Shown here piece by piece: positions 4,710-52,684 of a stretch of 64,000 bases of DNA. The translations under genes and the position numbers were made by a program. The notes under the pieces were generated by a model. It worked only from the letters and a program-made list of their open reading frames with translations. It was not told where the DNA came from and made no database searches. The first letter of the stretch is position 1. Each line of letters begins with the position of its first letter. Origin of the DNA: Enterobacteria phage P922; the sequence record OR999189.1, one strand, 5' to 3'.

Positions 4710-4785
4710 GCTGATTTAGCTCAGTAGGTAGAGCAACTCACTTGTAATGAGAAGGTCGGCGGTTCGATTCCGTTAATCAGCACCA
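4710..4785 (+). tRNA. tRNA-Thr (anticodon UGU)
   Basis: Acceptor GCTGATT/AATCAGC, loop CTTGTAA, T-arm GGTTCGATTCC. Confidence 0.85.
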
Positions 4786-4786
4786 A

Positions 4787-4861
4787 GGCCCTGTAGCTGG
4801 AAGGTTCAAGCAAGCGACTCATAATCGCCAGATGGTGGTTCAATTCCACCCAGGGCCACCA
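4787..4861 (+). tRNA. tRNA-Ile (CAU anticodon, probably lysidine-type) or Met
   Basis: Acceptor GGCCCTG/CAGGGCC, loop CTCATAA, T-arm GGTTCAATTCC. Confidence 0.75.
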
Positions 4862-4870
4862 AATTAATTT

Positions 4871-4957
4871 GGGGAGTTATCCCGTAGAGGTAGCGGTGTG
4901 GACTGTAAATCCATTGTCATTGCGACTCGGGTGGTTCGACTCCATCACTCCCCACCA
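4871..4957 (+). tRNA. tRNA-Tyr (anticodon GUA), long variable arm
   Basis: Acceptor GGGGAGT/ACTCCCC, loop CTGTAAA, T-arm GGTTCGACTCC; not among the eight T4 tRNAs I recall. Confidence 0.75.
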
Positions 4958-4961
4958 ATTT

Positions 4962-5036
4962 GGATGTGTAGCTCAATGGCAGAGCGATCGCCTGTTAAGC
5001 GATTGGTTATAGGTTCGAATCCTATCACGTCCGCCA
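4962..5036 (+). tRNA. tRNA-Asn (anticodon GUU)
   Basis: Anticodon stem ATCGC/GCGAT with loop CTGTTAA; T-arm GGTTCGAATCC. Confidence 0.75.
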
Positions 5037-5040
5037 AATC

Positions 5041-5116
5041 CGAGGCATAGCTCAGAAGGAAGAGCAAGGACCTTCTAAGTCCTAGGTCGTAGGTTCGATC
5101 CCTACTGCCTCGACCA
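5041..5116 (+). tRNA. tRNA-Arg (anticodon UCU)
   Basis: Acceptor CGAGGCA/TGCCTCG, loop CTTCTAA, T-arm GGTTCGATCCC. Confidence 0.85.
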
Positions 5117-5132
5117 ATTAAGTGAGGAAAAT

Positions 5133-5483
5133 ATGAAAGGTAATGTTTATTTAGTAGTTCATGATTTAACATTCTATTTTAATCACAATGACACTGTTAT
5201 TTCTGAACGTGTAATTAATTTACTTTATCAGCATGCAGATTATGTTTATGTCGAAAATGAATACGGTCATTGGCAATTTCTCAAAAATCGTTCATTTGGT
5301 TTAGATGGTTACGAATATTTTGAACGTAAAGATCTTTTAGATAAAATTCCGTTATCTACACAATATCAAAATCACAAGTCTTTATATAAATGCCGCCCAA
5401 TTCGAAATGCTGAATCTGCATATGAAGCGATTGATTTATGGCGTAAACGCCGTGAACAAATTGATGCTTTAAAAGAATATTAA
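5133..5483 (+). CDS. hypothetical protein
   Basis: 116 aa ORF with SD GAGGAAAATATG right after tRNA-Arg. Confidence 0.5.
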   Translation: MKGNVYLVVHDLTFYFNHNDTVISERVINLLYQHADYVYVENEYGHWQFLKNRSFGLDGYEYFERKDLLDKIPLSTQYQNHKSLYKCRPIRNAESAYEAIDLWRKRREQIDALKEY

Positions 5484-5818
5484 GAAACCGGGTCGCTACC
5501 GGTAAGTCGTCGGACTGATGTTCCCTGGAGTATAGTTTCTCCCACAGTTTTACTGTGTTCTGATTCTTTACTATCACAGCAGAAACGGCGCACCGAATTA
5601 TCGATTCGAGGAAATATCTTTGCCGTAAGCCGAGTAGCGTTTTTGACGGAACGTTCGGATATGATCGAGATATGGCCTTTTAAAAATATTGAGTAGCGTC
5701 AACTACTTAATAACCGGGTTCGAATCCCGGCGTTTCGTACAAACACTTGCCTTAGCAGGTGGAACCCCGACAAGGTTGCCGCAAGGCTTAGCCCCGACCG
5801 AAAGGTTGGGGCTTTTTA
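5484..5818 (+). ncRNA. candidate stable small RNA(s), T4 species 1/2 (rnaC/rnaD)-like region with tRNA-like T-arm
   Basis: About 330 nt without a convincing ORF next to the tRNA cluster; hairpins CCGGGTCGCTACCGG and CCGGGTTCGAATCCCGG; ends in GCCCCGACC-GAAA-GGTTGGGGC + T5. Confidence 0.3.
5791..5818 (+). terminator. intrinsic terminator
   Basis: GCCCCGACC-GAAA-GGTTGGGGC hairpin + TTTTT. Confidence 0.6.
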
Positions 5819-5907: not shown

Positions 5908-6471
5908 ATGAAAACCTATGCCGAATTTTTAACCGAAGCAGCAAAATTACCATCTGAAGCAGATCTTACTAAAGTATTCTTCCAATTAGACCCAAAAGAC
6001 CGTGGCGATTTTCTTAAGTGGAAAGCTAAAGCTATTGAAATGTATAACATCGATAATAGTTCTTTTACGATGAGTCAAGAAAATAAATTCAATAAAGCAT
6101 TTTTCAAAATTTCTAAGAAATTGGCATCAGGCGCTCAGGTTCCTAAATCTGCCTTAGCTACTCCTGAACGTGCACCTGTTAAAATTTCTAAGAATATGTT
6201 TGACACTAAAAAATATGTTAATGCTTTGAATAAAGCTCTTGACGCATTGGATGATGCAAAGAAGGCAGCCCGTGATCTTCAAGACGTGTACACCGATTTT
6301 GATCGTAAAACTAAAGGTTCTATTTCAAATAGCGAACGCAATAGTGTAAGTGTTTATTCTGATAGCCTTGATGTTCTTGGCGATGCGTATACTGAAATTA
6401 AAAATCGTATTAACACTGCATCTAAGCTAAAAGCTGCCGCAGAAGCTATAATAACTAAACTAGATAAATAA
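5908..6471 (+). CDS. internal-protein-like with CTS leader MKTYAEFLTEA
   Basis: 187 aa, Lys/Ala-rich, N-terminal MKTYxEF leader. Confidence 0.55.
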   Translation: MKTYAEFLTEAAKLPSEADLTKVFFQLDPKDRGDFLKWKAKAIEMYNIDNSSFTMSQENKFNKAFFKISKKLASGAQVPKSALATPERAPVKISKNMFDTKKYVNALNKALDALDDAKKAARDLQDVYTDFDRKTKGSISNSERNSVSVYSDSLDVLGDAYTEIKNRINTASKLKAAAEAIITKLDK

Positions 6472-7029: not shown

Positions 7030-7560
7030 ATGTCTCTTTATACCGAACTGAATGAAACTTCCGAAAAATCTTTTGATGGTATTTTATCAATAATGCAAAA
7101 GCAGATATTAGAACAGCTTAGTGAAGCCGCAAGCAACGGACATAAGGCTTGTCGAATCCCAAGCCCACATCGTCGCCTGTATGAACGCCCTCTTATTAAT
7201 TGGCTAGAAAGTGAAGGTCTTACGGTTAAGATTTGTCCTGCCAAATTTGATGTCCCACGCATTCTTAATATTTACTGGGATAAACCGGTTGAGAAACCGA
7301 TTGAGAAAAGTGACCCTTGGGTTGTTAATGTAAAAACATATGATAATGGATGCTCACTTGAGGTGTCTGCTGTAATTAAAGGCACTCACGGTGAAAAATC
7401 GTGGGGTTGGCCTGGTAAAGATAAAGAAATCGTGTTAAGTGTAAAAGCTACTAGTATTAGTACTCCTATAGCTAAAAGCATTATTAATGCTGCTATCGAT
7501 GAAGCTGAACGAATTTGTAAAATTAAAAATAGTTTACATCTCTCAAATAATGGGATATAA
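7030..7560 (+). CDS. hypothetical protein
   Basis: 176 aa ORF, SD GAGGAAACTGTTATG. Confidence 0.5.
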   Translation: MSLYTELNETSEKSFDGILSIMQKQILEQLSEAASNGHKACRIPSPHRRLYERPLINWLESEGLTVKICPAKFDVPRILNIYWDKPVEKPIEKSDPWVVNVKTYDNGCSLEVSAVIKGTHGEKSWGWPGKDKEIVLSVKATSISTPIAKSIINAAIDEAERICKIKNSLHLSNNGI

Positions 7561-20374: not shown

Positions 20375-20896
20375 ATGTTTATTTCAAGTGAAAGCGGTTT
20401 AATTCGTGTTGAATTTAAAAATGACATCTTCCTTATTCAAGGAGATGATATTATTAAAATGAGTTATGACGAAATCAAGAAAATTTGTCATATTCTTGAA
20501 AGTCGTGGAAAAGGAAATGCTACTATCGATATAGGTGATTTATGGGTGACACTTTATGAAGTATCCGAAGGATTTAACATTGAAGATGAAAACAACATCT
20601 TAGCTATTGATAAAAGAAGTGATTTGTTTGATGTGTTAAAAGTTTATGAACAGTCAAACGGTGGAAGAAAAGCTGCATTGATTTATCAAAAACCACATTC
20701 ATGTGGAACTGCTTCAATCATTTCAAATATTGAAGATGAAACTGATACTTATATGTGTGTTTTAAAAGCTGGTGGTGACCGTCATCCGGATTTTATTTCT
20801 ATTCGTCAAAACAATGGAGAAATTTCATTATCAAAATCAGAAGCTGAAGCTATGATTAAGTATTTAACAACTGTTACACCTTCAATGAAAGGATAA
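20375..20896 (+). CDS. hypothetical protein, paralog of 19811-20368
   Basis: 173 aa; shared motifs with the preceding gene. Confidence 0.5.
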   Translation: MFISSESGLIRVEFKNDIFLIQGDDIIKMSYDEIKKICHILESRGKGNATIDIGDLWVTLYEVSEGFNIEDENNILAIDKRSDLFDVLKVYEQSNGGRKAALIYQKPHSCGTASIISNIEDETDTYMCVLKAGGDRHPDFISIRQNNGEISLSKSEAEAMIKYLTTVTPSMKG

Positions 20897-20898
20897 TT

Positions 20899-21360
20899 AT
20901 GATTATTAATGAAAGCTCTTGGCACTATAAATTATTCAAAATGTTTAATGATGAATGGAAACGACCTAAGACACTGTGTGCATACTTTTGGTCTATTGTT
21001 ATCCCTACATTTTTCGTTTCTTTTTTCGGATGTACTATACTCGCAGGTCTAACTATTATCTGTGCAGAAATCATGCAGAAATGGTTTATTTATGGTAGTT
21101 TATGGACTCTTATTCCATCAGCATTTATACTTGCTATTTTGCTTGTTTTACTTATTATTGGTTCATTTGTTATTCCTGCACAACTACATGAAAAATATAA
21201 AGATTATAAATGGAAAAAGGATTATGCTTTACATGTAGAAAATATTGATAGGGCGTATAAAGGTTTACCTCCTATTCAACCCAAGAAATCTATTATCGTC
21301 GAATTTTTAAAAACGCGTAAAGCTAAAGTATGTCCTGTTATTGAATATAAGGCTGAATGA
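20899..21360 (+). CDS. membrane protein (two TM helices)
   Basis: 153 aa with long hydrophobic segments. Confidence 0.5.
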   Translation: MIINESSWHYKLFKMFNDEWKRPKTLCAYFWSIVIPTFFVSFFGCTILAGLTIICAEIMQKWFIYGSLWTLIPSAFILAILLVLLIIGSFVIPAQLHEKYKDYKWKKDYALHVENIDRAYKGLPPIQPKKSIIVEFLKTRKAKVCPVIEYKAE

Positions 21361-22633: not shown

Positions 22634-22897
22634 ATGACAGTTTACGTAGATGTTTTAATGAATCATGGATGGAAACTTCGCGGTCATCCAACTAAAAATT
22701 GTCATATGTTCACTGATGGAGATATTGAAGAGCTTCATGAAATGGCAGAAGCAATAGGAATGAAACGTTCTTGGTTTCAAGATAAACGCATTAAACATTA
22801 TGACTTACACGCTCGGCGACGCCAAAAAGCTATAGAACTTGGCGCCGTAGAAGTATCTCGTCGCGAAGCAGTAAAAATTTGGCAAACATTAAAATAA
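22634..22897 (+). CDS. hypothetical protein
   Basis: 87 aa ORF. Confidence 0.45.
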   Translation: MTVYVDVLMNHGWKLRGHPTKNCHMFTDGDIEELHEMAEAIGMKRSWFQDKRIKHYDLHARRRQKAIELGAVEVSRREAVKIWQTLK

Positions 22898-34667: not shown

Positions 34668-34979
34668 ATGATTAGTTTTGAGCGGTATGTGGTAGAGAGT
34701 TGGAAGGGTTTTGATATGTTCGGTAATGACTATTATTTCTATGAATGTAGTCTAAATCCTAGTTTTTGGGCTGGACGAGAACGAGAACTCGAAGAAATTA
34801 ATAACCGTGCTGAATTGTTAGGTGAATTACCTACGGTTTATTTTACCTTTGATGCATCTGGATTTGTTATCCAGGTTTATTTTCCTGAAGAAAATTCTGG
34901 CGATGATTCTGTTAACCCGCCATACTGGGCTTATCAAGGAATTATTTCTCGTGGAACAAAACTCGAACTTAAAGAATAA
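34668..34979 (+). CDS. hypothetical protein
   Basis: 103 aa ORF. Confidence 0.45.
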   Translation: MISFERYVVESWKGFDMFGNDYYFYECSLNPSFWAGRERELEEINNRAELLGELPTVYFTFDASGFVIQVYFPEENSGDDSVNPPYWAYQGIISRGTKLELKE

Positions 34980-38675: not shown

Positions 38676-39878
38676 ATGAAAGTATGTATTTTTATGGCTC
38701 GAGGTCTTGAAGGTTGTGGTGTAACTAAATTTTCTCTTGAGCAGCGTGATTGGTTTATTAAAAATGGTCATGAAGTAACTTTGGTTTATGCTAAAGATAA
38801 ATCATTTACTCGTAATTGCGCGCATGATTATAAGTCATTTTCAATTCCGGTTTTATTGGCAAAAGAATACGATAAAACGCTTAAGCTGGTAAATGATTGT
38901 GATATTCTAGTTATCAATTCAGTTCCTGCTACTTCAGTCGAAGAAGACACAATTAATAACTATAAAAAAATTATTGATAACATTAAACCTTCGGTTCGTG
39001 TTGTAGTTTATCAGCATGACCATTCTTCTCTTTCTTTGCGTCGAAATTTGGGATTAGAAGAAACTGTTCGTCGAGCTGATGTTATTTTTAGCCATTCTGA
39101 TAATGGTGACTTTAATAAAGTTTTGATGAAAGAATGGTATCCGGAAACTGTTTCTTTGTTTGATGATATTGAAGAAGCACCGACCGTATATAACTTTCAG
39201 CCTCCTATGGATATTGCGAAGGTTCGATCAACCTACTGGAAAGATGTTTCTGAAATTAACATGAATATCAACCGTTGGATTGGTCGTACTACTACATGGA
39301 AAGGCTTTTATCAGATGTTTGATTTTCATGAAAAACATCTTAAACCTGCAGGACTAAGTACTATTATGGAAGGTCTGGAACGTTCTCCAGCATTTATTCC
39401 TATTAAAGAAAAAGGAATTCCATACGAGTATTATCGTCTTCATCAAGTAGACCAAATTAAAATTGCTCCTAATTTGCCAACGCAAATTCTCGACCGTTAT
39501 GTAAATAGCGAAATGCTTGAACGCATGAGTAAATCCGGATTTGGTTATCAGCTGAGTAAATTAGATAAAAAATATCTACAGCGTTCTTTAGAATATACTC
39601 ATCTCGAGCTTGGTGCATGCGGAACAATTCCAGTATTTTGGAAATCTACTGGCGAAAATTTAAAATTCCGTGTTGATAATACTCCGTTAATTTCTCATGA
39701 TAGCGGTATCGTTTGGTTTGATGAAAATGACATGGAATCAACATTTGAACGTATTAAAGAACTGTCATCTGACCGAGCTCTTTATGACCGTGAGCGAGAA
39801 AAAGCGTATGAATTTTTGTATCAACATCAAGATTCAAGCTTCTGCTTTAAAGAACAGTTTGACATTATTACAAAATAA
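38676..39878 (+). CDS. agt: DNA alpha-glucosyltransferase (HMC glucosylation)
   Basis: 400 aa; matches recalled T4 alpha-gt length and N-terminus. Confidence 0.85.
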   Translation: MKVCIFMARGLEGCGVTKFSLEQRDWFIKNGHEVTLVYAKDKSFTRNCAHDYKSFSIPVLLAKEYDKTLKLVNDCDILVINSVPATSVEEDTINNYKKIIDNIKPSVRVVVYQHDHSSLSLRRNLGLEETVRRADVIFSHSDNGDFNKVLMKEWYPETVSLFDDIEEAPTVYNFQPPMDIAKVRSTYWKDVSEINMNINRWIGRTTTWKGFYQMFDFHEKHLKPAGLSTIMEGLERSPAFIPIKEKGIPYEYYRLHQVDQIKIAPNLPTQILDRYVNSEMLERMSKSGFGYQLSKLDKKYLQRSLEYTHLELGACGTIPVFWKSTGENLKFRVDNTPLISHDSGIVWFDENDMESTFERIKELSSDRALYDREREKAYEFLYQHQDSSFCFKEQFDIITK

Positions 39879-39900
39879 AGGGCTTCGGCCCTTTAGCTTT
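39878..39900 (+). terminator. UUCG-tetraloop hairpin / terminator
   Basis: AAGGGC-TTCG-GCCCTT + TAGCTTT. Confidence 0.5.
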
Positions 39901-40054
39901 ATACGGAGTTTGATATAATGATATTTCTTGGATATGTGATACTTTTTCTTGCATTTTATCTATTCACTAGAGCATGTTGGATTGGATTCTTTAGCACTCC
40001 AGATGGATTTATTTCAATAATTTTATTTTGCATTTCAATGACGGTTCTTGATAT

Positions 40055-40678
40055 ATGAAAAAATATATAACTTATTTAACAATATATAGTGGAGATAAAC
40101 TTCCTCCTTTTTATATTGGATCTACATCTTTAGACAGGCATTTAGCCGGATATCATGGATCAGTTTTATCTAAAAAGTATAAGAAAATTTATAATGAAGA
40201 ACTTTCAAATAACCCACATTTATTTGATTCATGCATTTTAGATGAATTTGATACGCGCGAAGAAGCTATTAAATGCGAGCTATATTATCAACGTTTGCAT
40301 GATGCGGTTAAAAATCCATTGTTCTTTAATATGTCATATGCTGCTCCAAAAGGTTCATTTGGAAGAGATATTAAAGGACAAAATCATCCATTATATGGTT
40401 CTCATAATTGTAAAGGAAACATACATTCACATGACCCATTAACAGGAAAATCTGCCTTTTTACCATATATTCCAGAAGGTTATGTAAAAGGAAGGTCAAA
40501 TAAATTTAAAGCTTCATCACATAATAAAGGTAAAAAATGGTATAATAATGGAGTTAAGCAAATGTTATGTCATGAACCTCCTGGTCCTGAATGGACAAAA
40601 GGAAAAATTAAAGAACTAGTTTCAAAAGCAGCTAAATTAGGATGGAAAAGATACCATGAAAATATTAAACTTGGGTGA
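40055..40678 (+). CDS. GIY-YIG homing endonuclease (Seg-like, free-standing)
   Basis: N-terminal YITYLTIYSGDKLPPFYIGST and downstream R...E...N residues (REEAIKCELYYQ) of the GIY-YIG module; basic C-terminal DNA-binding region. Confidence 0.65.
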   Translation: MKKYITYLTIYSGDKLPPFYIGSTSLDRHLAGYHGSVLSKKYKKIYNEELSNNPHLFDSCILDEFDTREEAIKCELYYQRLHDAVKNPLFFNMSYAAPKGSFGRDIKGQNHPLYGSHNCKGNIHSHDPLTGKSAFLPYIPEGYVKGRSNKFKASSHNKGKKWYNNGVKQMLCHEPPGPEWTKGKIKELVSKAAKLGWKRYHENIKLG

Positions 40679-41675
40679 TTGGCATTTAGGCGTTAAAGCT
40701 GATGATGAATGGATTCGCGGTATTCAAATTGATGGAATTAAACAAGCGATAGAATATTCTAAGAAAAATGGAATTACTGTATGGATTCAATACGGTGATA
40801 TTTTTGATGTACGAAAAGCGATCACGCATAAAACTATGGAGTTTGCTCGTGAAATAGTTCAAATGCTTGATGACGTTGGAATCACATTACATACTATTGT
40901 AGGAAATCACGATCTCCACTATAAAAATGTAATGCATCCAAATGCTTCTACTGAGCTTTTGGCTAAATATCCTAATGTTAAAGTATATGATAAGCCTACT
41001 ACAGTAGATTTTGACGGATGTTTAATTGATTTAATTCCTTGGATGTGTGAAGAAAATACTGGTGAAATTCTTGAGCACATCAAAACTTCATCTGCTTCTT
41101 TTTGCGTCGGTCACTGGGAACTGAATGGATTTTATTTTTATAAAGGAATGAAATCTCACGGTCTTGAACCTGATTTCCTTAAGACTTATAAAGAGGTGTG
41201 GTCTGGTCACTTCCATACTATCTCTGAGGCTGCTAACGTCAGATATATTGGGACACCATGGACACTAACTGCAGGTGACGAGAATGACCCTCGTGGGTTC
41301 TGGATGTTTGATACAGAAACAGAACGAATGGAATTTATTCCAAACAACACTACCTGGCATCGTAGAATTCATTATCCATTTAAAGGAAAAATTGACTATA
41401 AAGATTTTACAAATCTATCAGTACGTGTTATAGTAACTGAAGTAGACAAAAATCTAACGAAGTTCGAATCTGAACTAGAAAAAGTTGTGCATTCATTACG
41501 AGTTGTGTCAAAGATTGATAACTCTGTCGAGTCAGATGACAGTGAAGAAGTTGAAGTTCAATCTCTTCAGACGTTGATGGAAGAATACATTAATGCAATT
41601 CCAGACATCACTGATTCTGACCGTGAAGCACTTATTCAATATGCAAATCAGTTATATGTAGAGGCAACACAATGA
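40656..41675 (+). CDS. 47: recombination nuclease subunit gp47 (Mre11/SbcD-like)
   Basis: 339 aa; phosphoesterase motifs DWHLG, GDIFD, GNHD. Confidence 0.9.
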   Translation: MKILNLGDWHLGVKADDEWIRGIQIDGIKQAIEYSKKNGITVWIQYGDIFDVRKAITHKTMEFAREIVQMLDDVGITLHTIVGNHDLHYKNVMHPNASTELLAKYPNVKVYDKPTTVDFDGCLIDLIPWMCEENTGEILEHIKTSSASFCVGHWELNGFYFYKGMKSHGLEPDFLKTYKEVWSGHFHTISEAANVRYIGTPWTLTAGDENDPRGFWMFDTETERMEFIPNNTTWHRRIHYPFKGKIDYKDFTNLSVRVIVTEVDKNLTKFESELEKVVHSLRVVSKIDNSVESDDSEEVEVQSLQTLMEEYINAIPDITDSDREALIQYANQLYVEATQ

Positions 41676-41935: not shown

Positions 41936-42122
41936 CATTAATGATGAATTCATAGCAAACATTGATTATACCGAAGAAGATTCTAGATATGTTGGAATAA
42001 TTTATATTACATCAAAAACAGCACAAGGCGTTGTTTGCATGGCTGAATTTGATGAATACTTTTTAGATTATGATGATATGATAGAATGGTCTAAAAGATA
42101 CATTAAAAGGAATCTTTTGTGA
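41907..42122 (+). CDS. hypothetical protein
   Basis: ATG 41907 after AAGG; 71 aa. Confidence 0.35.
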   Translation: MHTVKFSTFDINDEFIANIDYTEEDSRYVGIIYITSKTAQGVVCMAEFDEYFLDYDDMIEWSKRYIKRNLL

Positions 42123-51104: not shown

Positions 51105-51845
51105 ATGATTAACGATTATATGACAGTTGAAGAAATCCGTCTTGATTTGGGTCTTGCATTAAAGGAAAAAGATTTCGTAATTGATAAAACCGGTGTTAAA
51201 ACTATTGAAATTATTGGTGCATCATTTGTAGCAGATGAACCTTTTATTTTTGGCGCTCTTAATGATGAATACATTCAGCGTGAACTTGAATGGTATAAGT
51301 CTCAAAGTTTGTTTGTTAAAGATATTCCAGGTGAAACACCAAAGATTTGGCAGCAGGTAGCATCTTCTAAAGGCGAAATTAACTCGAATTATGGTTGGGC
51401 CATCTGGTCAGAAGATAACTATGCCCAATATGATATGTGTTTAGCTGAACTTGGTCAAAATCCTGATTCTCGACGTGGTATCATGATTTATACTCGTCCA
51501 TCCATGCAGTTTGACTACAATAAAGATGGCATGTCAGATTTCATGTGTACGAATACAGTACAGTATCTGATTCGTGATAAGAAAGTCAATGCAGTAGTAA
51601 GCATGCGTTCAAATGACGTGGTCTTCGGATTCCGTAATGATTATGCATGGCAAAAATACGTACTAGATAAATTAGTATCTGATTTGAATGCAGGTGATTC
51701 AATTCGTCAGTATAAAGCAGGTTCCATTATATGGAATGTCGGAAGCCTTCATGTGTATTCCCGTCATTTTTATTTGGTTGACCATTGGTGGAAAACTGGC
51801 GAAACTCATATTGCGAAAAAAGATTATAACGGTGAGTGGAAATGA
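51105..51845 (+). CDS. 42: dCMP hydroxymethylase gp42
   Basis: 246 aa; near-identical to recalled T4 gp42. Confidence 0.95.
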   Translation: MINDYMTVEEIRLDLGLALKEKDFVIDKTGVKTIEIIGASFVADEPFIFGALNDEYIQRELEWYKSQSLFVKDIPGETPKIWQQVASSKGEINSNYGWAIWSEDNYAQYDMCLAELGQNPDSRRGIMIYTRPSMQFDYNKDGMSDFMCTNTVQYLIRDKKVNAVVSMRSNDVVFGFRNDYAWQKYVLDKLVSDLNAGDSIRQYKAGSIIWNVGSLHVYSRHFYLVDHWWKTGETHIAKKDYNGEWK

Positions 51846-52684
51846 TTCAATTCGTAATTCCAAGTTATCAACGCGTAGGGGCAGTTTCTGCCCTTGATAT
51901 GTTTCCATCTGATTATGAACCTCATATTGTAGTACGTAAACACGAAGAAAAAGCTTATTATGATGCTTATGGGTCTAGAGCTAAAATTATAACTATTCCT
52001 GATGATGTTAATGGAATTGCTGGTACTCGTAAAGCAATTACTGATATGTATGCAGGCCAACGAATCTGGATGATTGATGATGATACTACTATTCGTATGA
52101 GTTCAATGCGAAAGAAAGATGATCGTCGTTGCGTAGATAAAATTAATCAATTAACTCGTGAACAGTTCTATGAATTGATTCAATACGTTGAAGATGCCAT
52201 GGATTGTGGGTATTATCACGGTCATGCTCGTCTACCTATTTTTAAAATTACTTCATCTTGGGGTAATTATCGTGAAAATTCATATGGATTCACGAATACC
52301 TGGTATGACCTCGGAAAACTTACAACAGAACAAATTGGGTATGGAAAAATTGATTTATGCGAAGATATGTATGCATTTCTCAATTTAATTAATCAAGGTT
52401 ATCCGCATTTGGCCTTGTTCAAATATCTGGTTGTATCTGGAAAAGCACAAGCTCCAGGCGGATGTAGCTCAATTCGTAGTAATTCTAAACATAATAGAGC
52501 TCTTGAGCAAATCAATAGAGAGTTTCCAGAGCAAGCTCGTTGGAAAACATCGAATATTGAAAAGAGAAAATCGTTGGGTGAAGAAGACGAGCCATTAAAG
52601 GTTCTTCGCATGTGTGTTTCGCGCAAAGAAAAATCAGAAGCGTTTCATAAGTTTAATGCTATTCATCCAATAGCAGTTGATTAA
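51836..52684 (+). CDS. GT-A fold (GT2-like) glycosyltransferase at the T4 beta-gt position
   Basis: 282 aa; VIPSYQR start and IWMIDDDTTI (DxD) motif; differs from the 351 aa T4 beta-gt I recall. Confidence 0.55.
   Translation: MEMIQFVIPSYQRVGAVSALDMFPSDYEPHIVVRKHEEKAYYDAYGSRAKIITIPDDVNGIAGTRKAITDMYAGQRIWMIDDDTTIRMSSMRKKDDRRCVDKINQLTREQFYELIQYVEDAMDCGYYHGHARLPIFKITSSWGNYRENSYGFTNTWYDLGKLTTEQIGYGKIDLCEDMYAFLNLINQGYPHLALFKYLVVSGKAQAPGGCSSIRSNSKHNRALEQINREFPEQARWKTSNIEKRKSLGEEDEPLKVLRMCVSRKEKSEAFHKFNAIHPIAVD

Follow-up and report, generated by a model that had tools for sequence, protein, structure and literature searches.

A predicted free-standing Seg-like GIY-YIG homing endonuclease at the 5′ end of gene 47 in a T4-type phage

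We analysed a stretch of 64,000 nucleotides from Enterobacteria phage P922 (sequence record OR999189.1; hereafter the window), which corresponds to the reverse complement of phage T4 from ~76.4 kb to ~11.1 kb. It matches T4 at 90–98% identity in most aligned blocks and is therefore part of a Tequatrovirus genome. All features described below are on its + strand. Positions 40055–40678 hold an open reading frame (ORF) of 207 amino acids, from ATG to TGA, in which the peptides quoted in a first-pass annotation are present according to the ORF listing. Its left flank is gene 47.1 (39918–40058), which encodes a 46-residue predicted membrane protein (phrog_6693, 1.5e-31) that is 100% identical to T4 47.1, and a-gt (38676–39878; Pfam AGT, 5e-236) is the neighbour further upstream. 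The right flank is gene 47 (40656–41675), the presumed target gene of the encoded endonuclease, with a Metallophos match and a PHROG assignment as SbcD-like subunit, i.e., a nuclease subunit of the Mre11/SbcD type; beyond it, on the same strand, follow 46.2, 46.1, and gene 46. The ORF overlaps 47.1 by 4 nt (ATGA) at its 5′ end and runs 23 nt into gene 47 at its 3′ end (40656–40678), its final residues HENIKLG and stop codon falling on gene 47 codons 1–8; across the gene 47 start, the endonuclease frame reads …W K R Y H E N I K L G stop. The phosphoesterase motif I (GDWHLG) of gene 47 is encoded 18 nt from the insertion point. The first-pass annotation had placed the ORF between alpha-gt and gene 47, overlapping the start of the latter; the overlap and the position upstream of gene 47 hold, but 47.1 intervenes and the ORF is not directly beside a-gt. 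The ORF is confirmed as a genuine gene rather than a chance reading frame because 174 database proteins match it at E ≤ 1e-3, its dN/dS is low (0.03–0.12, see below), and its AlphaFold2 model is confident.

The arrangement in T4 (NC_000866) is simpler: 47.1 overlaps gene 47 directly, as …GATATATGAAAATTTTAAATTTAGGTGATTGG, with no gene between them, in line with the suspicion of the first-pass annotation that T4 has no homing endonuclease at this position. Alignment of the window with T4 gives identical flanks and a single clean gap of 601 bp with ATGAAAA at either edge. In this pairwise alignment, the left copy of the 7-bp direct repeat (40055–40061) is the gene 47 start of T4, and the right copy (40656–40662) is the gene 47 start in the present genome, inside the 3′ end of the endonuclease ORF; the start codon and upstream region of T4 gene 47 are now taken over by that ORF. 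Recombination between the two ATGAAAA copies would regenerate the empty site. All eight carrier sequences inspected share the same boundaries of the insert. On either side, 47.1 and 47 remain intact and colinear with their T4 counterparts, the ORF is free-standing and outside any intron or intein, and the insert has a G+C content of 30.1% versus 34–36% in the flanks.

The catalytic set of GIY-YIG nucleases consists of the tyrosine of GIY, the tyrosine of YIG, a basic residue (Arg27 in I-TevI), a glutamate (Glu75), and an asparagine (Asn90). The predicted counterparts here are Tyr7, Tyr20 (YIG being residues 20–22), Arg28, Glu75, and Asn92, so that, judging from alignment, the conserved GIY-YIG catalytic residues are present. 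Among 117 relatives, E75 and N92 are invariant and Y7, Y20, I21, and G22 are kept in at least 90%; position 28, Arg in the window ORF, is Lys in most other members of the clade. The invariant E74 and N90 of the Seg proteins are the aligned counterparts of E75 and N92. Profile-to-profile comparison (hhalign) of the 117-sequence family alignment with an alignment of T4 SegA–G gave a probability of 97.7% (E = 1.8e-12, 89 columns, residues 2–99). The Pfam GIY-YIG model (PF01541) matched residues 4–84 with 19.8 bits (E = 9.8e-4), below its gathering cut-off of 22.6; this is a limit of the model's sensitivity and no structural criterion, and one relative (P0065) has a precomputed PF01541 match. PHROGs returned phrog_10820 (2.3e-93; named “HNH endonuclease”) and, more weakly, phrog_314 (“homing endonuclease”), and a search of NCBIfam with the ORF protein gave zero matches. 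The AlphaFold2 model (mean pLDDT 87.5, and 93–98 across the first 90 residues) has a three-stranded sheet with flanking helices and carries GIY and YIG on the first hairpin, as in the GIY-YIG fold. The only credible Foldseek matches were three chains of the I-TevI catalytic domain, which ranked top in both fold searches. Sequence searches of the PDB with the single protein or the 117-sequence profile gave nothing relevant, the link to I-TevI coming from the fold searches only, and a comparison by hhalign between the family profile and the I-TevI sequence by itself picked up just a weak NUMOD3-like stretch (probability 23%); a profile match required the Seg alignment. We assign residues 1–100 (40055–40354) to a GIY-YIG nuclease domain because of the profile matches, the fold matches, and the conserved residues. 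The N-terminal domain “as in T4 Seg endonucleases” of the first-pass annotation is thereby borne out, although the profile search proposed there falls short in Pfam and succeeds against SegA–G.

The basic region that the same annotation saw after the nuclease domain is equally real: residues 101–207 have a pI of 9.9, with 20 K+R versus 7 D+E. They contain two copies of one SegE-like “PEGxVKG” module, written out as SHNCKGNIHSHDPLTGKSAFLPYIPEGYVKGR and SHNKGKKWYNNGVKQMLCHEPPGPEWTKGK, each predicted to form a beta-hairpin, with a terminal helix after them. The first module (residues 116–151, SHNCKGNIHSHDPLTGKSAFLPYIPEGYVKGRSNKF; 40400–40507), which presumably binds DNA, has predicted strands at residues 123–126 and 133–136 and aligns with the “...PGELVPEGFVKG” module of SegE; its “PEGW/YxKGR” motif is also found in SegB, the final motif of which is PEGWFKGR, and H124, P128, P140, G142, G146, and R147 are invariant in the clade. 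The second module (residues 155–188, SHNKGKKWYNNGVKQMLCHEPPGPEWTKGKIKEL; 40517–40618), a repeat of the first, has predicted strands at residues 161–164 and 169–172 and aligns with “GTFWVNNG...PDGFIKGR” of SegE; N157, K158, and G183 never vary in the clade, and W162, Y163, and G166 hardly do. PDB and Pfam searches yielded no counterpart of the C-terminal half.

T4 SegE is the nearest known protein in architecture. Pairwise BLASTP gives 28% identity over residues 20–192, including both C-terminal modules (1e-5), and both proteins consist of a GIY-YIG domain with “GY(x)GS” followed by two “xNNG…P(E/D)G(F/W/Y)xKG(R/K)” modules. Both genes are free-standing and directly 5′ of a gene for DNA metabolism, which for SegE is uvsW; the window ORF differs in its presumed target, gene 47, and in its 23-nt overlap with the downstream gene. 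SegE is said, in work of Kadyrov and colleagues from 1997, to cleave the allele that lacks the endonuclease, close to the uvsW start, and to drive non-reciprocal exchange. The nearest T4 nuclease domain is that of SegG, encoded between genes 59 and 32 (BLASTP, 28% over 109 residues, 1e-6), which shares the “K(T/L)PP(Y/F)YIGS” hairpin but has an unrelated C-terminal region and targets gene 32. I-TevI (PDB 1LN0, 1MK0) is intron-encoded, in contrast to the free-standing ORF, its DNA-binding region (zinc finger, NUMOD3 helix, and helix-turn-helix) is absent here, and its sequence similarity to the family is undetectable by profile-to-sequence comparison. A literature search returned no paper naming or characterising an endonuclease at the 47.1/47 junction, and Edgell et al. 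2010 make no mention of one. We regard the gene as an uncharacterised new addition to the well-known Seg class, the members of which mediate intronless homing and marker exclusion (PMC2330249, PMC2988022).

Sets of seg-like genes are very unequal among relatives of T4 (PMC2993671, Table 5), and the present gene is no exception. A query spanning the insert was covered to at least 80% in 68 phage records; the insert alone had matches of at least 95% identity in 68 records, and the right junction was fully covered in 68. The uninterrupted T4-type junction was fully covered in 465 records; T4, T2, RB14, RB3, RB27, RB55, and RB59 lack the gene. The gene is thus carried by about 13% (roughly one in eight) of T4-type records and lacking from ~87% of Tequatrovirus records, both counts (68 and 465) being inflated by GenBank/RefSeq duplicates. 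Public records name the protein variously “hypothetical protein”, “homing endonuclease”, “putative homing endonuclease”, or, wrongly, “HNH endonuclease”.

Relatives with 61–81% identity to the window protein lie directly 5′ of gene 47 in five other genera of Tevenvirinae: in Salmonella phage SEA1 (Gelderlandvirus, 81%), Serratia phage LC53 (Winklervirus, 71%), Klebsiella phage KP185 (Jiaodavirus, 68%), Escherichia phage AV114 (Mosigvirus, 65%), and Escherichia phage QL01 (Dhakavirus, 61%). This placement is independent of whether a-gt or 47.1 is upstream, and in three of these genera the ORF runs into the start of gene 47. For the same pairs gp47 identities are 69–76%, the endonuclease being about equally diverged, with SEA1 as the exception (81% for the endonuclease versus 73% for gp47). 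Such divergence between genera is compatible with long residence and losses, together with some horizontal movement. Among five Tequatrovirus alleles, pairwise dN/dS is 0.03–0.12 with dS up to 0.18, and dN/dS is 0.07 against the SEA1 orthologue; the gene is therefore under purifying selection over its whole length. The first-pass annotation suspected a recent mobile insertion and proposed to compare the junction across T-even genomes. The comparison shows a gene that is absent from many relatives, so that the presence in all of them that would have spoken against the annotation is not seen, and the element is mobile or sporadic. A recent insertion is not supported, since the dS values and the shared junction in five further genera mean that the element has long been established at this site.

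Most members of the clade, including metagenomic ones, end in …(H/N)-E-N…, which corresponds to ATGAAAAT at the gene 47 start when translated in the frame of the endonuclease. Conserved coding sequence is often recognised by known homing endonucleases, and the conserved element beside the insertion point here is the gene 47 start, MKIL(N/H)xGDWHLG, in which GDWHLG is the phosphoesterase motif I. The nuclease subfamily extends beyond this junction. YenMTG1_009 of Yersinia phage TG1 and gp108 of Escherichia phage Bp7 belong to it (identity over residues 1–126: Bp7, 60%; TG1, 45%) and are likewise free-standing and overlap the downstream gene, but they are inserted at a different site, before topoisomerase gene 39/60, just upstream of the gene for the topoisomerase II large subunit, and have NUMOD3 (PF07460) tails instead of SegE-like modules. 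A scan of IMG/VR with a degenerate pattern found 130 loci with the nuclease domain, with two copies on some contigs; their neighbours, identified by tblastx against T4, included 47, 39, 43, 30, nrdA/61, 17, 19/20, 23, and rnh, gene 30 being present as fragments on both sides of the nuclease-domain ORF. A single nuclease domain with exchangeable DNA-binding tails and essential genes as neighbours is a known pattern among GIY-YIG homing endonucleases (PMC2988022; PMC10448857).

We looked for polymorphism linked to the insert in an alignment of five carrier and ten non-carrier Tequatrovirus loci that extended from 500 nt left of the junction to 700 nt beyond it on the right. The 15 loci have 149 variable columns, mostly mosaic, and only nucleotides 9, 10, 15, and 18 of gene 47 (40664–40673) co-vary with the insert; none does so on the 47.1 side. 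The four substitutions are synonymous for gp47 and lie 8–17 nt from the insertion point. Codons 3–6 read ATT TTA AAT TTA in non-carriers (the T4 type), ATA TTA AAC TTG in the window, and ATA CTA AAC TTG in the seven other carriers inspected. All sampled carrier records are within three mismatches of the insert-type right junction, and records without the insert have mostly 90–95% identity over the first 60 nt of gene 47, with most sampled rows at 91.7%. Insert-type codons without the insert occur in five of 438 full-length empty-site records, which come from four phages (BCPEco_001, BCPSen_003, Ec_YwIITB1, and SHFML-26); RB14 follows as the next closest empty-site record, with three mismatches, and an artificial “empty site with the window's codons” matched no record at 99% or more.

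The four linked sites are a candidate recognition or immunity determinant or, alternatively, a candidate minimal co-conversion tract, and both readings, protection and co-conversion, fit the homing-endonuclease model. The confinement of the linkage to the right flank speaks for a target on the side of gene 47. As the substitutions lie within the ORF's own overlapping 3′ end, they could also be donor sequence that hitch-hiked with the insert and has no part in immunity. A deletion between the ATGAAAA copies would produce just such empty genomes with insert-type codons as the four found here; alternatively, these are pre-insertion or resistant alleles. In the QL01 lineage, codons 3–6 differ from those of insert-less relatives at five of 12 nt. 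In an insert-less IMG/VR genome (L019), the first 48 nt of gene 47 equal those of the carrier SEA1; protective substitutions are therefore not general.

Upstream signals bear on how the gene may be expressed. A G+C-rich hairpin with a CTTCGG loop (39876–39895) comes just after the stop codon of a-gt. T4 has the identical hairpin, which lies outside the insert; a scan for terminator-like structures flags it on the − strand only, and the record of phage SA20RB labels it a rho-independent terminator. Next to it is a motif resembling T4 middle promoters (GCTT-N14-TATAAT, 39896–39919), which occurs 11 times in the window versus 1.19 expected, nine times on the + strand; the depositors of phages Lutter and SA20RB marked a promoter at this position. 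The −10 element of the motif overlaps the start codon of 47.1, so the endonuclease would be the first complete ORF on such a transcript. A generic sigma-70 promoter scan was uninformative (9 sites versus 8.0 expected). Some T4 endonuclease genes have sequestered ribosome-binding sites; RNA folding of the two translation start regions here found no structure beyond shuffled controls (z-scores +0.8) and hence gives no evidence for such sequestration.

Taken together, we consider it probable (about 0.8) that the ORF is a free-standing gene for a functional homing endonuclease of the Seg-like GIY-YIG type. The anatomy of the ORF, its fold and family, the insertion boundaries, the distribution, the linked polymorphisms, the purifying selection, and the shared junction in other genera are observed; its cleavage activity, target position, homing, and expression pattern are inferred. 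The target is probably the 5′ end of gene 47. When a carrier and a gene-less phage infect the same cell, the enzyme would bind and cut the endonuclease-less allele at or near this 5′ end, and the phage recombination machinery would repair the break with the donor genome as template, so that the recipient would receive a copy of the 601-bp gene along with the first ~18 nt of donor gene 47. The carrier allele would probably be protected by its interrupted site, by the four synonymous changes in codons 3–6, or by both. On arrival, the insert would have taken the original gene 47 start, with its ATGA overlap with 47.1, and put the start codon of gene 47 into its own 3′ end; it would be transcribed together with 47 and 46, by early read-through and from the middle-promoter-like site. 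Gp47, with gp46, may itself process breaks made by homing endonucleases (PMC2988022).

The gene could instead be ancestral to Tevenvirinae at this junction and have been lost repeatedly via the ATGAAAA repeats, its patchiness reflecting deletion and not ongoing homing. The same position in six genera and an endonuclease divergence close to that of gp47 agree with such a history, as do the 7-bp repeats, which would permit precise excision, and the four empty-site phages, whose insert-type codons are exactly what deletion would leave. However, the ~87% of Tequatrovirus records without the gene nearly all have different codons 3–6, which requires allele replacement beyond deletion; the flanking polymorphisms are mosaic save for four adjacent sites, the SEA1 endonuclease is closer to that of the window than its gp47 is, and the nuclease-domain family is found at many other loci. 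Repeated loss as the whole explanation is therefore unlikely, and it is in part complementary to homing because the known cycle of homing endonucleases includes both gain through homing and loss.

Strong purifying selection would also be expected of a domesticated nuclease or DNA-binding protein with a role beneficial to the phage, such as exclusion of competitors, local stimulation of recombination or amplification, or regulation of genes 47 and 46 expression, and retained for that role and not as a selfish element. Gene 47 translation could depend on the ORF, the 3′ end of which contains the gene 47 start codon, and similar roles have precedents, since T2 markers are excluded by the Seg enzymes of T4 (PMC2988022) and SegB promotes amplification of anti-defence loci (PMC13096335). 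Yet most close relatives do without the gene, neither start site has a predicted regulatory RNA structure, and marker exclusion is homing seen at the population level. We think domestication quite unlikely and retain a homing endonuclease as the preferred reading.

An A6-to-A7 frameshift interrupts the gene in three records (ESh16, ESh36, and ZCEC15). Together with the embedding of the gene 47 start in the ORF, these alleles might suggest an inactive, decaying remnant kept only as carrier of the gene 47 translation start region. This is very improbable: the window ORF is intact with all conserved catalytic positions, dN/dS is low across its whole length, and the frameshifts are in a homopolymer run, two of the three in UNVERIFIED records, and may be sequencing errors. 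The apparently internally deleted copy in Shigella phage KNP5/KNP1 proved to be 99 consecutive N in a record marked UNVERIFIED and not a decayed gene. Finally, an HNH endonuclease, as many GenBank/RefSeq records and the strongly matching PHROG 10820 have it, is almost certainly wrong, for Pfam finds no HNH family at E ≤ 1, fold and profile matches are to GIY-YIG, and some relatives have been deposited by others as “GIY-YIG homing endonuclease”; PHROG 10820 is misnamed.

The homing endonuclease at 47.1/47 may be part of something wider. We tentatively envisage a gene-47-specific Seg lineage, kept at this junction in at least six Tevenvirinae genera, that would recognise the conserved coding sequence around motif I (MKIL..GDWHLG). 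Its 3′ end, fused across the gene 47 start codon, would couple translation of gp47, an essential recombination nuclease, to the selfish element and make simple loss costly, and the same domain, re-tailed with other DNA-binding modules, would give endonucleases aimed at 39, 43, 30, 61, 17, and 20 in environmental T4-like phages; this is possible, but as a whole it is doubtful.

Our current understanding of homing endonucleases is left unchanged by these results. The T-even Seg set gains a defined member with an exact insertion point and a 10-nt candidate target or immunity determinant, and collections already contain natural alleles of the sensitive, the carrier, and the “empty but insert-type” kind. 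For this family, the name “HNH endonuclease”, although it has spread widely, is wrong, and the family offers a clean case of one nuclease domain joined to different DNA-binding tails at different essential genes.

We compared the window (1-64000) with the corresponding span of T4 (11.1-76.5 kb) for homing endonuclease content. No homologue of the T4 seg, mob, or I-Tev genes was detected in window 1-64000 (tblastn, E <= 1e-3), whereas the same span of T4 carries seven such genes (segF, segA, mobB, mobC, I-TevII with the nrdD intron, mobD, and segB). At each of these seven positions the window shows a clean gap or a replacement, and the only homing-endonuclease-like gene found within it is the ORF at 40055. 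The protein encoded at 40055-40678 belongs to PHROG 10820, a family that bears the name "HNH endonuclease". Numerous sequence records in GenBank and RefSeq, several of the NC_0549xx series among them, have taken over this name. An HNH identity was ruled out for this protein, its domain being GIY-YIG both by profile and by fold.

The number of presumed DNA-binding modules differs among members of the gene-47-associated clade, because the longer members have an additional C-terminal segment. Many clade proteins exceed that of the window by 60-100 residues in this way (L044 of Escherichia phage AV114, 2489-3292, and proteins P0005, P0013, P0015-P0018, and P0020-P0024), and some of the longer ones hold further "KKxWxNDG…GR" modules. 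In three records carrying the insert before gene 47, the GGT-AAAAAA-TGG run (window ~40529-40534) has A7 for A6: Shigella phage ESh36 (L049, 601-1225), vB_Eco_ZCEC15 (L050, 601-1202), and ESh16. The frame is thereby shifted past residue ~161 and the second C-terminal module is lost. The A7 run reflects either decay of the allele or a sequencing error in the homopolymer, and two of these records are marked UNVERIFIED.

The same nuclease domain is also visible next to the DNA ligase gene. In seven environmental T4-like contigs from IMG/VR (L061, L065, L066, L068, L069, L070, and L074), an ORF with this domain is flanked on both sides by tblastx matches to T4 gene 30, the upstream flank matching T4 at ~126.8-127.2 kb and the downstream flank at ~126.1-126.3 kb. 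Judged from these flanks, the endonuclease gene may split or interrupt the ligase gene in these contigs. Several close relatives have another ORF, of 284 aa, between 46.1 and gene 46 (SHFML-26, L036, 4018-4872; L034, 4018-4872; Lutter, L038, and PhiZZ23, L039, both 4720-5574), which is annotated as a homing endonuclease in SHFML-26 and PhiZZ23. This insert is absent from the window, where 46.1 leads directly into gene 46 at 42119.

The window as a whole contains 11 matches to the T4 middle-promoter pattern GCTT-N13-15-TATAAT, against 1.2 expected. Nine of the 11 matches lie on the + strand, along which early and middle transcription runs in this segment (e.g., 1037, 12032, 13220, 24930, 31964, 39896, 43817, 50974, and 58907).

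Five + strand ORFs of unknown-function PHROG families occupy segments without a T4 match by blastn: 5133-5483, whose segment stands where T4 has segB among the tRNA genes, 5908-6471, 7030-7560, 22634-22897 (Pfam DUF4031), and 34668-34979. At the T4 mobD position are two ORFs (20375-21360, +), one of 173 aa encoding a putative transcription factor that resembles y05I (Pfam T4_y05I_N, T4_y05I_C) and one of 153 aa encoding a predicted membrane protein (PHROG 944). In place of T4 beta-gt plus segA (1941 bp in T4, 946 bp in the window) stands a 282-aa ORF (51836-52684, +) that matches PHROG 842, "beta-glucosyl-HMC-alpha-glucosyltransferase" (7e-89), and Pfam TAGT (1.8e-9). The presence of this ORF together with a-gt indicates that DNA glucosylation would be of the T2/T6 type, not the T4 type.
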